IMG/VR virus record: IMGVR_UViG_2872180393_000001
Length of the DNA: 51,038 nt
Reading direction: 5' to 3' (one strand)
Origin: a virus
Lineage: Duplodnaviria; Heunggongvirae; Uroviricota; Caudoviricetes
Made by a program: the position numbers. Positions 21,001 through 27,000 of this stretch are shown here, in pieces. Position 1 is the stretch's first letter. The number at the start of each line of letters is the position of its first letter.

Positions 21001-24000
21001 CTATTCACTGATTACTCCGATCACCCTCGCAAACTTGTCACGCTAAACCCAAAGCTCAAATCAACAGCAGCCGGACGTTACCAGCTTCTTTCCCGTTGGT
21101 GGGATGCATACCGTAAGCAGCTTGGGCTGAAAGACTTCTCTCCGAAAAGCCAGGACGCTGTTGCACTACAGCAGATTAAAGAGCGTGGCGCTTTACCGAT
21201 GATTGATCGCGGTGATATCCGTCAGGCAATCGACCGTTGCAGCAATATCTGGGCTTCATTGCCGGGCGCTGGTTATGGTCAGTTCGAGCATAAAGTTGAC
21301 AGCCTGATTGCAAAATTCAAAGAAGCAGGCGGAACGGTCAGAGAGATTGAGGTATGAGCAAAGTAACCGCGATTATCTCCGCTCTGGTTATCTGCATCAT
21401 CGTCTGCCTGTCATGGGCTGTTAATCATTACCGTGATAACGCCATTACCTACAAAGAGCAGCGCGATAAAAAAGTCAGTGAGCTGAAGCAGGCGACTGCC
21501 ACCATTACTGACATGCAGCAGCGCCAGCGTACTGCTGATGCACTTGATGCTAAATACACGAAGGAGTTAGCTGATGCGAAAGCTGAAAATGATGCTCTTC
21601 GGCGCAAGCTTGATAATGGTGGCAGGGTGCTCGTCAAAGGAAAATGCCCTGTGCCATCCTCAGCCGAAGCCTCCAGCGCCTCCGGCATGGGCAATGATGC
21701 CACCGTCGAACTCTCTCCAGTTGCTGGACGAAACGTTCTCGGTATCCGGGACGGAATTATCCGCGACCAAACAGCACTGAGAACGCTTCAGGAATACATC
21801 TGGACGCAATGCCTTCGATGATAGCGATAATTTTACTCATCATCCTTCACATCTGGCTCTGTAGACAGGGTGGTGATCACTTCTGGAGTGAATCCAGATT
21901 AAACATCTCATTGCTGATGCTTGATATTGAGCATCTGGCGCGCGGTAAGGGGCTGCGTTGAGATAAGAGCCAGTCATCACAAACACCAGGATTTAGCCTC
22001 GCATTTGCGGGGCTTTTTTACATCTGCAGTAAACCGCGCATCGCAGCGCGTAACAATCCCGAGTCTTTCAGAAAGCTGAGCCTGAGAACTGCCGTATATG
22101 GTGGCGACCATCTCGGGACGGCTTTTCTGTGCGAACAGGCTCAACTTTCTAAAGGAAATACCGACATGAACAAATCATTAACCGTTCTTCCTTCTGGCGA
22201 ATACCCGACCATGAGCAGTCTTGAGATGGTGGATTACATTAATGCTGATCGGAAATCCAAAGCGGAGGCGGAGGGGCTTGCGTTCCCCTGTAAGAAATAT
22301 CGCAAACTCGAACACCGCAGTTTCATGAAGAAAGTACCCAGGGTCCTCGGGGATGCAGCTGCAAAATTTTTTGCAACTGATACCTATATCAACGGAACAG
22401 GTGGTGTTGTGGAGAGGGATATTTGCAATTTTCCCAAGCGTGAAGCTTGCCTCATGGCAATGAGCTACAGCTATGAGCTTCAGGCGCAGGTGTATGACCA
22501 CATGACGGAGCTTGAGGGCGGGAAGGACATTAACCTCCTCGATTTCTCTGGCCTGACCGATATGGCAATCAGCGAAATGCAAAACCGTGTCGCGGCTGCT
22601 GAGAAGTTCTCATTTGAAATGCACGGTCAAGCAGGTAGCGCTCTCATGACTCGTCGGAAGAAAGAGAAGAAGGCCATTAAAAAGGCTGAGCAGCTTGTGA
22701 AGGATCTGATTCAGTTCAAGCTATGTGACATGGGGGATTTCCCTGATGGTAAACCAGCATGACTCCGATTGATTTCATACATAAAAATGTAACAACCGAG
22801 TTAATAAAGCTTGGGTACGACCAGAACGCGGCTATGACTGGCGCTGACATGGCGGTGGAGCATTACCGCCGTTGTTCACAAGCCAGCAGAAAAGGCCGAG
22901 TTTTCGATGACTGCCTGTACATTGCAAAACAGTGGGCAGGTAGGCAGAAAAGGGAAAAAATGACAACCTGAGAGCTACTTTCACAACGGCTCTTCATTAC
23001 AAAGCCTATCTACGGGTGGGCTTGATAATGGCTTATACCCTACACGGGATAACTTAACTGATATCCCTTTTAACGGATAAAGGTATTCAGGCCTGACACA
23101 TCATGCGCTGTATCGTCGCTGTATTCCCGCATTAACCATGACCGTAGCCCGACGGGGAACTCCTTCTGCGCGAGTGTGCGGGAATAATCAAAAACGATGC
23201 ACACCGGGTTTTTACCGCGTTTATGGTTCGCGGGTTTGTCCCTCATGCTCGCCAGTCCTGTGCGGGGGTGGAAGAAACAGGACACTTACACTGATTCTTG
23301 TGGGTACGATGCTATTCCTTTCTGGATTATCCCGATGTCATTCATGCAGGGCGCTGTATCAGACGTTCGTCATGGCTGTCAGGCTGACGGGTCCTCCCGG
23401 TGGGGTGGCCTGCCACGGGGCGGGAGCGGCGCAGAATTTCACTATTTATGAAAATTTTTCGGAAACCATGTCCGGTTTCTCTGAAGGTTAACCATTTGAA
23501 AAATATAGAAATGTGCTTTCTGTGAACCGGACATGCGCAAAAATTGAACACTCAAACCGGACATATATGCCGCGTTTCATAAAGTTGTTCGCAAGATGCA
23601 TGTTTAAAACGCATGAGGGGAGATTTTTTGGCGAGGTGAACAGTGGCTACTCAGACTGAAGTTGCCAGGCATTTGAGTCTGACCGATCGCCAGCTTCGCA
23701 GATTACAGAAACTGCCGGGTGCCCCGGTTTCGAACAAGCGAGGACAACTGGATCTGGATGAGGTAGCCTGAGTTTAACGGACACTCCTTCCTGAAATAGA
23801 ATGGCATCAGAAGGAGCTAATAATGAGCAGAAAAACCCAACGTTACTCTAAAGAGTTCAAAGCCGAAGCTGTCAGAACGGTTCTTGAAAATCAACTTTCG
23901 ATCAGTGAAGGCGCTTCCCGATTATCCCTTCCTGAAGGCACTTTAGGACAATGGGTTACCGCCGCCAGAAAAGGGCTCGGTACTCCTGGTTCCCGCACGG

Positions 24001-27000
24001 TGGCTGAACTGGAATCTGAAATTCTGCAACTGCGTAAGGCGTTAAATGAAGCTCGCCTTGAGCGAGATATATTAAAAAAAGCAACAGCGTATTTTGCACA
24101 GGAGTCGCTGAAAAATACGCGTTAATCGAACAATGGCGACAACAATTTCCCATTGAAGCGATGTGTCAGGTATTTGGTGTATCCAGGAGCGGTTATTACA
24201 ACTGGGTACAGCATGAACCCTCAGACAGAAAACAAAGTGATGAGCGGCTAAAACTGGAGATTAAGGTGGCACATATCCGCACTCGCGAAACATATGGAAC
24301 CCGGCGGCTCCAGACGGAGCTGGCAGAGAATGGCATCATCGTTGGTCGTGACCGACTGGCACGTCTTCGTAAGGAGCTAAGGCTACGCTGTAAGCAGAAA
24401 CGCAAGTTCAGAGCGACTACGAACCCGAACCACAATCTGCCAGTTGCGCCAAATCTGCTGAACCAGACGTTCGCTCCTACAGCACCAAATCAGGTCTGGG
24501 TGGCGGACCTGACGTATGTTGCCACACAGGAGGGATGGTTGTACCTCGCTGGCATCAAAGATGTTTATACGTGCGAAATTGTCGGCTACGCCATGGGAGA
24601 GCGCATGACAAAAGAGCTGACAGGTAAAGCCCTGTTTATGGCGCTCAGGAGCCAGCGCCCACCTGCCGGGCTAATCCACCACTCTGATCGAGGTTCACAG
24701 TACTGCGCATACGATTACCGGGTCATACAGGAGCAGTTTGGTCTGAAAACATCAATGTCGCGTAAAGGTAACTGTTACGACAACGCTCCGATGGAAAGCT
24801 TCTGGGGAACGCTGAAAAATGAGAGCCTGAGCCACTATCGTTTTAATAACCGGGATGAAGCCATCTCAGTAATACGGGAATACATTGAGATTTTCTACAA
24901 TCGTCAGCGTCGTCACTCTCGTCTGGGGAATATCTCCCCGGCAGCCTTCAGGGAAAAATATCATCATATGGCTGCTTAAAAAAAGAACAAATGGTAGTGT
25001 CCGCTATTGCCAGTACACCTCAGGATGCCTGGCGTGATTTTTACATATCGTATCTGAGAAGAAGTAAAAACGATGTGCCTGATGGTGATCCGGAAGAGGA
25101 TTATGAAGAGAAACTACTCATTGCCAGATGGGAACTGACCGCAGAACAGGCTGTCGCACAGCAGTTAAAAAATCAGGTGTCAAAAGGAAATCTTATCGAT
25201 ACCGGATTTTGTATTTTTGCCCTTAGTAAGCTGGCGATGGCTTTATCCAGTACGCTTGACTCCATTCCTTTGTCCATGCAACGACAGTTCCCGGATTTAA
25301 CGCCGCGTCATATTGATCATCTGAAAATCCTTATTGCTAAGGGTGCGAATCAGTGCGCGCGTGCGGGGGATAAATTACCGGATTTACTCGATGAATATAT
25401 CAGAACAACAACTGAGTAATATGATGGTGGCAGTCACTATCGCACTGCAGCCACTGGTCAGGGTATTGCCGGTGACGGCTGTAGAATGGGCCGATCAAAA
25501 TTATTACCTGCCTAAAGAATCGTCATACGGTGAGGGGGAATGGAAAACGCTGCCGTTTCAGGTCGCCATCATGAACTGCATGGGCAATGACGAGATTCGT
25601 ACAGTTAACCTGATTAAATCTGCCCGTGTTGGTTATACAAAAATGGTGCTTGGTGTGATCGGGTATTTTATTGAGCACAAATCCCGCAACACTCTTCTTT
25701 TTCAGCCGACGGACTCAGCTGCTGAAGATTTTATGAAGTCTCACGTGGAAGCAACAATTCGTGATGTTCCTTGCCTGAAAAAACTTTCTCCCTGGCTGGG
25801 CCGGAAACACCGGGATAATACGCTCACACTGAAGCGTTTTTCCTCTGGTGTGGGGTTCTGGTGTTTGGGTGGTGCTGCTGCCAAAAACTACCGTGAAAAA
25901 TCTGTCGATGTGGTCTGCTATGACGAACTCTCCTCGTTTGAACCGGATGTGGAAAAAGAAGGTTCGCCAACACTGCTTGGCGATAAACGTATTGAAGGTT
26001 CGGTATGGCCAAAATCCATACGCGGTTCAACGCCAAAAATTAAAGGCTCCTGTCAGATTGAAAAAGCTGCGAATGAATCTGCGCATTTCATGCGGTTTTA
26101 TGTCCCTTGCCCTCATTGCGGGGAGGAGCAGTATCTGAAGTTTGGCGATGATGCGACGTCGTTTGGCCTGAAATGGGAGAAGGGTAAACCGGAAACGGTG
26201 TATTACCTGTGTGAACATAATGGCTGCGTGATCCGTCAGTCTGAACTTGATCAGACCGGGGGGCGCTGGATTTGTGACAATACCGGGATGTGGACGCGTG
26301 ACGGTCTGACGTTTTTCAGTGCTTCGGGTAATGAAATTCCGCCGCCGCGCTCCATCACTTTCCATATATGGACGGCGTACAGTCCGTTCACCACCTGGGT
26401 ACAGATAGTCTGTGACTGGCTGGATGCACTGAAAGATCCCAACGGCGTGAAAACTTTTGTGAACACCACGCTGGGCGAGACCTGGGAAGAGGCCGTGGGC
26501 GAAAAACTCGATCACCAGGTACTGATGGATAAGGTTGTGCCTTACACGGCAACGGTGCCTGTCCGGGTGGTTTATCTGACGGCGGGCATTGACTCGCAGC
26601 GAAACCGTTTTGAGATGTATGTCTGGGGGTGGGCTCCGGGAGAGGAAGCCTTTCTGGTGGATAAAATCATCATCATGGGACGTCCTGATGAGGAAGAGAC
26701 GCTGTTACGTGTGGATGCGGCGATCAATAAAAAATACCGCCATGCAGACGGTACCGAAATGACCATTTCCCGTGTCTGCTGGGATATCGGGGGATCGATG
26801 GCGAAATCGTGTATCAGAGGTCAAAAAAACACGGTGTTTTCCGGGTACTGCCGGTAAAAGGTGCCTCTGTCTATGGCAAGCCGGTGATCACCATGCCGAA
26901 AACCCGCAATCAGCGGGTGTGTATCTGTGTGAGGTGGGGACGGATACCGCAAAAGAAATTCTCTATGCCCGAATGAAGGCCGATCCCACCCCTGTGAATG

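Follow-up and report, generated by a model that had tools for sequence, protein, structure and literature searches.

The window, i.e. the whole stretch of 51,038 nucleotides that was analysed, contains a lambda-like prophage whose packaging region comprises a cos site, the small terminase gene Nu1 (TerS) split by an IS600 element, and the large terminase gene gpA. Nu1 has cos on one side and the large terminase gene on the other, and the gpA ATG at 25391 overlaps the end of Nu1, whose stop codon is at 25417-25419. No tRNA genes were found in the 51-kb window.

The cos site was delimited by comparison with phage lambda. A cosQ-like heptamer (GGGTCCT, 23389..23395, + strand) aligned to the lambda cosQ region; cosQ is a highly conserved 7-bp site (PMC4669245). 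Alignment to the circularised lambda ends placed the cosN cohesive-end 12-mer GGGCGGGAGCGG, composed of the halves GGGCGG and GAGCGG, at 23418..23429 (+ strand). Its bases 1-6 are the same as in lambda and the flanking CG is conserved, while bases 7, 8, 9, 11 and 12 are different; variation in bp 7-12 of cosN is common and tolerated (PMC4669245). Three R-like sites follow in the putative cosB, namely R3 (CATGTCCGGTTT, 23467..23478, + strand, corresponding to bp 50-61 from the cohesive-end start), R2 (CATGTCCGGTTC, 23524..23535, - strand) and R1 (TATGTCCGGTTT, 23554..23565, - strand). When the R-site 12-mer was searched with 0-1 mismatch, these three sites, all in cos and within 100 bp, were retrieved, and none elsewhere in the 51 kb; R3-, R2- and R1-like sites are also present in phage PhiR12_1. 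Between R3 and R2, an IHF-like site (TTTCAAATGGTTA, 23489..23501, - strand), assigned by consensus match only (one mismatch to WATCAANNNNTTR), is a candidate for I1, and its position fits the complex cosB of the lambda type (PMC4669245). The cosQ heptamer, the 12-mer, conserved in its left half and flanked by CG, and the R sites with the IHF-like site are, by sequence, the components of a lambda-like cos. The site is judged to be complete, with its cis-elements untouched by the insertion. The cosN 12-mer lies 225 nt upstream of the Nu1 GTG, and IS600 is inserted 329 bp downstream of cosN, in agreement with the sequence-only reading, which had placed the insertion just downstream of cos.

The inserted element (23759..25022, + strand, 1264 bp) has the same orientation as Nu1. 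It begins with TGAGGTAGCC and finishes with ACACCTCA, and its terminal inverted repeats (IRL, 23759-23785; IRR, 24996-25022) are 27 nt long, imperfect (70% complementary) and end in TGAGG...CCTCA. All of its 1264 nucleotides are identical to those of an IS600 copy on the Shigella boydii plasmid NZ_CP119447.1, annotated as 'IS3-like element IS600 family transposase', and a search of a plasmid collection gave IS600 matches of at least 99% in 772 plasmid records. The boundaries previously proposed for an 'IS600-like' element are therefore correct to the base, and, given the 100% identity to annotated copies, the assignment can be narrowed to IS600 itself. The element is the second of four IS600 copies in the window (at 6328, 23759, 39183 and 48954), as its earlier label 'copy 2', retained here, implied.

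The coding region of copy 2 consists of orfA (23823-24125, + strand; Pfam HTH_Tnp_1) and orfB (ending at 24979, + strand; Pfam HTH_21, rve, rve_2 and rve_3), with an A7G slippery site at 24074-24081 (+ strand). Both transposase frames are intact, and their fusion in the -1 frame gives a 385-aa OrfAB, which is called as a gene in the sequence record. The trinucleotide GGA is found on both flanks of the element (23756..23758 and 25023..25025) and only once at the insertion site of the uninterrupted allele in Escherichia coli FDAARGOS_943, which confirms the GGA target-site duplication noted earlier. Copy 2 thus combines the characters of an IS3-family element, i.e. full-length identity, repeats ending in TG...CA, a 3-bp duplication and two overlapping ORFs with a slippery site, and is a complete IS600 that is apparently still functional.

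The four IS600 copies differ from each other by 0-5 SNPs, and each has its own 3-bp duplication; the duplications are AGC, CTG and GGG in the other three copies, whose targets are cIII, the tail gene L and a tail-fibre gene. A 1269-nt 'arm' prompted the idea that copies 2 and 4, which are in inverted orientation, had mediated an inversion; this was rejected because the duplications match at every copy and copy 2 has Nu1 sequence on either side.

The 5' fragment of Nu1 (23643..23758, + strand) comprises codons 1-38 and bases 1 and 2 of codon 39. Its start codon is the GTG at 23643, which is preceded by GAGGTGA at 23633-23639 and corresponds to the start of the PGAP CDS in FDAARGOS_943. Codon 39 (GAT) is cut by copy 2 between GA and T, and the upstream frame enters the IS and meets a stop codon at 23769-23771, giving a 42-aa product. 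The 3' fragment (25026..25419, + strand) extends from the last base of codon 39 to the stop codon and is the part matched by Pfam Phage_Nu1. Its reading frame continues upstream to an ATG at 24991, within the IS, so that a 142-aa chimeric ORF with the Phage_Nu1 domain is formed.

In-silico excision, the check suggested in the sequence-only reading, was performed by removal of the IS and of one GGA. The new junction, from 23758 to 25026, regained an intact Nu1 ORF of 169 codons, ending with TAA at 25417-25419. The excised 834-bp context matched FDAARGOS_943 in one ungapped alignment (99.8%), where the CDS 'terminase small subunit' (WP_074132335.1) begins at the equivalent GTG. The restored protein is identical to WP_074132335.1 at 169 of 169 residues, which substantiates the proposal that the Nu1 frame runs from the GTG at 23643 to 23758 and resumes in frame at 25026; PhiR12_1, an isolated phage, has a Nu1 that shares 160/169 residues with it. 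That such a phage encodes a 95%-identical protein is indirect support for a restored Nu1 able to bind cosB and to promote cos cleavage and packaging. A match of such extent would be impossible by chance.

Homology of the restored protein to lambda Nu1 was found in its C-terminal half, with 45% identity over 95 aa (BLASTP, E = 4e-27). The Pfam profile PF07471 (Phage_Nu1) gave a score of 68.1 bits (E = 9e-19; curated cutoff, 30), the match covering residues 71-150 only (profile positions 84-163). The N-terminal ~70 residues gave no match to the lambda N-terminal domain by Pfam or BLASTP, and comparison of the restored Nu1 with PDB sequences gave chance-level matches only, the lambda Nu1 domain not being recovered. 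For the N-terminus, a single-sequence AlphaFold model predicted helices at residues 4-10 and 15-22, a loop, and a helix at residues 38-55, with pLDDT 71-82 in a model that is poor as a whole (pLDDT 55.8). Foldseek searches with the model returned weak matches only (E > 0.3), all of them to MerR, excisionase or RacA winged helix-turn-helix (wHTH) folds.

Other lesions were located in the prophage. The large terminase gpA (25391..27317, + strand; Pfam GpA_ATPase and GpA_nuclease) is a pseudogene, with two 1-bp deletions relative to an intact 642-aa homologue, at 26789 (G6 to G5) and at 26915 (G4 to G3); the plural frameshifts previously attributed to terminase A were thus found. The portal gene (27501..29092, + strand) is likewise a pseudogene, lacking 1 bp at 28756 (G5 to G4) by comparison with its intact homologue, and a further deletion is present in the tape-measure gene at 37377.

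It should be considered that these four small indels relative to a close relative are all 1-bp deletions in runs of G or A, a classic long-read error pattern. The source assembly may be long-read only, and all its small indels are homopolymer deletions. In addition, the exact chimeric junction ORF is recorded in one chromosome only, CP026846.1. These observations would be expected if the insertion, the frameshifts, or both were assembly artefacts. However, the IS ends are exact, the 3-bp duplication is clean and both flanks are contiguous Nu1; a target duplication is not producible by mis-assembly, and no indel occurs in the 5 kb that the four IS600 copies add up to. Moreover, the gpA 26789 and portal 28756 deletions recur in a second chromosome, CP026776.1, which is an independent assembly of a different strain. 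An artefactual origin is therefore very unlikely. Because of this recurrence, the gpA 26789 and portal deletions are probably real, and probably older than the Nu1 insertion. The gpA 26915 deletion, which is absent from CP026776.1, and the tape-measure deletion at 37377 could be long-read homopolymer or assembly errors, and frameshifts of this kind are a caution to check long-read assemblies before pseudogenes are called.

None of 5426 complete E. coli genomes contained the same insertion, and two 'places' in them matching at 80% or more turned out to be IS600 at other sites. Scans for the exact left junction in GTDB representative genomes and for the exact right junction in metagenome contigs both gave 0 matches. 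The exact IS600 junction may be used as a strain-specific marker.

The order of events was examined by comparison with CP026776.1, where the right end of an IS600 in the same orientation abuts the position corresponding to 25111 of the window, and cos and the 5' end of Nu1 are missing. Since the frameshifts are common to the two chromosomes and the IS600 junction in CP026776.1 is different, the data suggest that the prophage was packaging-dead already when IS600 entered Nu1. This order assumes that the CP026776.1 junction is not derived from the copy 2 insertion by adjacent deletion. If it were, the Nu1 insertion could have come first and have been the inactivating event, with the gpA and portal frameshifts following later, and the CP026776.1 arrangement would have arisen from the same insertion through an IS600-mediated adjacent deletion of 25023-25110 and further rearrangement. 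IS-mediated adjacent deletions leave the IS end intact, and the right end in CP026776.1 is intact and lies just 88 bp deeper into Nu1. On the other hand, 5 of 1084 positions distinguish the IS600 of CP026776.1 from copy 2, to which it has no greater similarity than to copies 3 or 4, whereas the prophage DNA flanking it differs by only ~0.1% (5 of 4745 positions; Poisson P = 0.006 for orthology). An insertion preceding the frameshifts is therefore considered unlikely. The SNP argument on the order of events could be made less clear by gene conversion between copies of the IS.

The possibility that the insertion is functional was also evaluated. A C-terminal Nu1 fragment could in principle be produced from the in-frame ATG at 24991 and, having no DNA-binding domain, might bind gpA and poison the terminase of incoming lambda-like phages; alternatively, the insertion might be a switch, reversible by precise excision. 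In favour of this, there is an in-frame chimeric ORF of 142 aa that includes the Phage_Nu1 domain, and, with both the coding sequence and the target duplication undamaged, precise excision would restore Nu1. In addition, proteins of phage-inducible chromosomal islands (PICI) that interfere with TerS are known (PMC6739421). However, no Shine-Dalgarno sequence precedes the ATG at 24991, no promoter-like site reads out of the right end of the IS, where an outward hybrid promoter was also searched for and none was found, and the limitation of the insertion to one assembly gives no sign of selection. As to the switch, restoration of Nu1 would be pointless with gpA, portal and L broken. A function for the insertion thus appears highly improbable. 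In its more specific version, namely expression of the ORF as a dominant-negative terminase poison, with a gpA-binding C-terminus and no DNA-binding domain, directed at superinfection by lambda-like phages whose packaging is of the PhiR12 type, the idea is extremely improbable; if it were true, the IS insertion would have given a dead prophage gene an anti-phage function, comparable to the PICI interference with TerS.

The reading that we favour, with a probability of about 0.85, is that of a simple insertion of IS600 into Nu1 codon 39 of a lambda-like cos prophage, as a neutral, strain-specific late hit in an already dead packaging module. IS600 would have transposed by simple insertion into codon 39, with duplication of its GGA target. 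The resulting 42-aa stub would retain the putative helix-turn-helix and wing, and would be devoid of helix 3, of the oligomerisation region and of the gpA-binding C-terminus, while the 3' fragment would be promoterless and have no ribosome-binding site. In lambda, cos cleavage and packaging require both Nu1 and A. Since no functional TerS would be present, terminase would lack its anchor at cosB, and neither the nicking of cosN nor the start of packaging would take place (the roles of TerS and cosB are described in PMC4669245); loss of packaging can soundly be inferred from lambda genetics.

A lesion in Nu1 or in gpA would be sufficient alone, and the portal gene is frameshifted and L and the tail-fibre gene carry IS600 as well. 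Because portal, L and the tail-fibre gene are also broken, the Nu1 insertion is neither necessary nor unique as an inactivating lesion. It is most likely selectively neutral. For annotation purposes, the prophage should be regarded as defective, with Nu1, gpA, portal, L and the tail-fibre gene as pseudogenes, and no particles are expected from it on induction. With cos intact, however, packaging of DNA from this site by a co-resident helper whose TerS has the same specificity would in principle be possible.

In comparison with lambda, the gene order cos-Nu1-A-W-B and the overlap of Nu1 with the start of A are the same in the prophage. Also lambda-like are the cosQ heptamer, the left half of cosN, the tripartite cosB, the canonical distance of R3 from cosN and the presence of an IHF-like site between R3 and R2. 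Unlike in lambda, the R-site sequence is CATGTCCGGTTT, R1 is oriented like R2 and not like R3, and the right half of cosN is different at five of six positions. Phage PhiR12_1 (PV340549.1), deposited as an isolated phage genome, has three R sites of the CCGGACAT type in the same order and orientation as the prophage; in contrast to the prophage, its Nu1 is uninterrupted and its cohesive end is that of lambda (GGGCGGCGACCT).

IS600 is found in the packaging region of related prophages, in gpA in E. coli UTAK-15 and in the Rha gene upstream of Nu1 in E. coli EH031. Because their sites differ, the insertions in UTAK-15, EH031 and CP026776.1 are taken to be events independent of that in the window. 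In STEC O121:H19, an IS600 in lacZ is reversible by the IS-excision enhancer (PMC9397093). The Nu1 insertion is likewise a simple insertion into a coding sequence which precise excision could reverse, but, given the damage to other genes, the prophage would stay defective after reversal.

IS600 is a common transposable element of Shigella and E. coli. A close parallel is the IS600 pseudogenisation of Shigella and enteroinvasive E. coli (EIEC; Hawkey et al., 2020, PMC7373316), in which IS600 expansion and IS-driven pseudogenisation are known. Here, too, the same element, with its 3-bp duplication and the -1 frameshift between orfA and orfB, has inactivated genes in several near-identical copies within one 51-kb stretch. 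There is no difference in kind, and only the insertion site, recorded in one chromosome (CP026846.1), is specific; the locus is a case of typical IS-driven prophage decay in a genome of the Shigella/EIEC type, with no new biological feature.

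The IS600-like element that a sequence-only reading had placed in Nu1, the small terminase gene, is a complete IS600. Inspection of 23400-25500 showed that it starts with TGAGGTAGCC at 23759, ends with ACACCTCA at 25022 (1264 bp) and has imperfect terminal inverted repeats of 27 nt. Over its full length it is 100% identical to a copy on the Shigella boydii plasmid NZ_CP119447.1, annotated as 'IS3-like element IS600 family transposase', and matches of at least 99% occur in 772 plasmid records, all but one from Escherichia or Shigella. On the plus strand it carries orfA (23823-24125, Pfam HTH_Tnp_1), an A7G slippery run (24074-24081) and, in the -1 frame, orfB (ending at 24979, Pfam HTH_21, rve, rve_2 and rve_3); the source record annotates the 385-aa transposase fusion product. 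Its identity, repeats and coding features therefore show that the element is entire and its reading frames intact.

The Nu1 reading frame starts from a GTG at 23643, with GAGGTGA five bases upstream, and is cut within codon 39 (GAT, split as GA/T). GGA is present on either side of the element (23756-23758 and 25023-25025), so that the predicted in-frame split with target duplication, at the junction 23758/25026, was confirmed. The 5' piece runs into IS600 and meets a stop after 42 residues. When 23759-25025 was removed in silico, an uninterrupted ORF of 169 codons was recovered, ending with TAA at 25417-25419, and the excised 834-bp context gave a single ungapped alignment (99.8%) with Escherichia coli FDAARGOS_943. 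There, PGAP annotates a 'terminase small subunit' (WP_074132335.1) with the same GTG start, followed by genes for the large terminase, head-tail joining protein, portal, S49 protease, decoration protein and major capsid protein. Restored Nu1 is identical to WP_074132335.1 at 169/169 residues and to the 'terminase subunit Nu1' of the isolated Escherichia phage PhiR12_1 at 160 of 169. This clean insertion creates a null Nu1 allele.

Pfam Phage_Nu1 matched the restored protein with 68.1 bits (cutoff 30), covering residues 71-150 only, and BLASTP gave 45% identity to lambda Nu1 over the C-terminal 95 residues. The N-terminal ~70 residues had no match in Pfam or in a PDB sequence search. A single-sequence AlphaFold model of moderate confidence shows a helix-turn-helix (residues 4-10 and 15-22), a loop and a helix from residue 38, for which the Foldseek hits, to folds of the MerR, excisionase and RacA types, were all weak. 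The model would fit a DNA-binding domain of divergent winged-HTH type, in which the cut site would fall between the wing and helix 3.

To locate the cos site, 23280-23700 was aligned with lambda's two ends joined together. This placed cosQ, as the conserved heptamer GGGTCCT, at 23389-23395 and the cohesive-end 12-mer GGGCGGGAGCGG at 23418-23429; the left half of the 12-mer is identical to that of lambda, whereas five of the six positions of the right half differ, the flanking CG dinucleotides being retained. The same pattern of cosN conservation is displayed by lambda-like phages (PMC4669245). With at most one mismatch, the 12-mer CATGTCCGGTTT occurs three times in the 51 kb, always within cos. 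These occurrences are the R3-like (23467-23478, plus strand), R2-like (23524-23535, minus) and R1-like (23554-23565, minus) sites of cosB, with R3 at its canonical position (bp 50-61 from the cohesive-end start) and an IHF-like site, one mismatch from consensus, between R3 and R2. With all these elements present, cos is complete. In lambda, R3 and R1 share one orientation and R2 has the other (PMC4669245); R1 is thus inverted here. Since the isolated phage PhiR12_1 has the same three R sites in the identical arrangement, this looks like a natural cosB variant paired with a divergent DNA-binding domain of the small terminase. IS600 is indeed just downstream of cos, 329 bp past cosN and 193 bp past R1, and so leaves the cis-acting sites untouched.

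Both Nu1 and A are essential in lambda. As judged from lambda genetics (PMC4669245), terminase would fail to assemble at cosB when its small subunit is missing, and neither cos cleavage nor packaging would follow.

Further lesions were located by comparison with the FDAARGOS_943 prophage, to which 22995-44965 is ~99.8% identical. Over 19.4 kb, 23 substitutions and four indels were counted, each indel being a 1-bp homopolymer deletion on the window side: in gpA, the large terminase, at 26789 (G6 to G5) and 26915 (G4 to G3), in portal at 28756 (G5 to G4) and in the tape-measure gene at 37377 (A8 to A7). Compared with that prophage, the tape-measure gene is also missing 102 bp at 36008/36009, an in-frame loss of 34 codons bounded by direct repeats of 10 bp. 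GpA is truncated after about residue 466 of 642, within the nuclease domain. Because such deletions also resemble long-read assembly errors, independent support was sought in other records. A second chromosome with the same late-gene module, CP026776.1, encodes the 488-aa truncated gpA identically and, base by base, shares the deletions at 26789 and 28756, which are therefore probably real and inherited; it lacks that at 26915, which is uncorroborated.

CP026776.1 also bears on the order of events. Positions 6272-9721 of its locus (L013) correspond to window 22345-25111, and there cos, together with Nu1 up to about codon 67, is replaced by two partial, inverted IS600 copies flanking another IS. 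(Its portal gene has an extra T of its own, at window-equivalent 28489.) The right end of its IS600 adjoins window position 25111, compared with 25023 in the window. A single ancestral insertion in Nu1, common to both strains and followed by an adjacent deletion, may explain this. The two IS600 copies, however, differ at 5 of 1084 positions, against 5 of 4745 in the adjacent prophage DNA (Poisson P = 0.006, given orthology of the copies). The simplest reading of these sequences, to which we assign roughly three chances in five, has the frameshifts in gpA and portal arising before the two strains split and IS600 entering Nu1 independently and later. If so, the insertion was a neutral second hit on a packaging module already dead.

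An ATG in the IS600 right end (24991) reads in frame into the 3' fragment of Nu1, giving a 142-aa ORF (24991-25419), which the source record annotates as a gene and which bears the Phage_Nu1 match. Sequence inspection revealed no ribosome-binding site ahead of this ATG, and no outward promoter was found reading from the element; the fragment is therefore regarded as silent. The junction also forms a weak terminator-like hairpin (25020-25042, TCAGG-ATG-CCTGG then CGTGATTTTT), absent from the uninterrupted gene and, with a stem of just 5 bp, probably insignificant. The chimeric ORF is recorded only in CP026846.1, where a 20.4-kb locus shows no difference from window 14991-35419. None of 5426 complete E. 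coli genomes has the insertion, nor do the GTDB representative genomes or metagenome contigs.

Three further IS600 copies are present, at 6328-7591 (plus, duplication AGC), 39183-40446 (minus, CTG in IS orientation) and 48954-50217 (minus, GGG). They differ from copy 2 (plus, GGA) by 2-3 SNPs each, and among themselves by up to 5. Each having its own 3-bp duplication, all four are simple insertions without inter-copy recombination. Copy 1 splits a minus-strand ORF that is presumably lambda cIII-like; in-silico excision recovers MQYAIAGWPVAGCPSESLLERITRKLRDGWKRLIDVLNQPGVPKNG. Copy 3 breaks minor tail protein L near codon 186, and copy 4 lies ~65 nt upstream of the stop codon of a tail-fibre N-terminal-domain protein gene. 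Besides the insertion in Nu1, gpA and portal are frameshifted, and gene L and a tail-fibre gene are interrupted by IS600. In a 968-aa Toprim primase/helicase ORF elsewhere (13354-16260, plus), Toprim_2 (aa 209-296) is separated from AAA_25 (aa 787-849) by a Hom_end_hint match (aa 379-424) that at 23.9 bits stays under its cutoff and a LAGLIDADG_3 match (aa 579-634) that exceeds its own; the ORF looks like the prophage replication protein harbouring an intein with a homing endonuclease.

The packaging region is struck by IS600 repeatedly across related prophages, probably because dead prophages tolerate insertions. Two independent insertions lie at sites other than that in the window: E. coli UTAK-15 (L006, 3557-4822) has IS600 in gpA, and E. 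coli EH031 (L007, 1501-2766) has it in the gene for the Rha regulator, upstream of Nu1. The FDAARGOS_943 prophage, the closest relative with intact terminase, is itself in independent decay, with ISEc60 in a head-tail joining gene (L002, 33080-34270) and IS1A in the tail-tube gene (L002, 35954-36651), neither found in the window, IS600, IS2 and ISEc60 in the early region, and ipaHd directly past the tail-fibre genes. The window itself most probably comes from a Shigella strain, judging by its density of IS600, the full identity of copy 2 to one from S. boydii, the accession block and the fact that its closest relative is an E. coli bearing ipaH.

The earlier description and interpretation stand, with these refinements. 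In E. coli that produce Shiga toxin, IS600 insertions are reversible via the IS-excision enhancer (PMC9397093); reversal in Nu1 would leave this prophage unrescued. IS600 expansion and IS-driven gene loss are well documented in Shigella and enteroinvasive E. coli (PMC7373316), and the insertion in Nu1 is an ordinary case of a kind already known.
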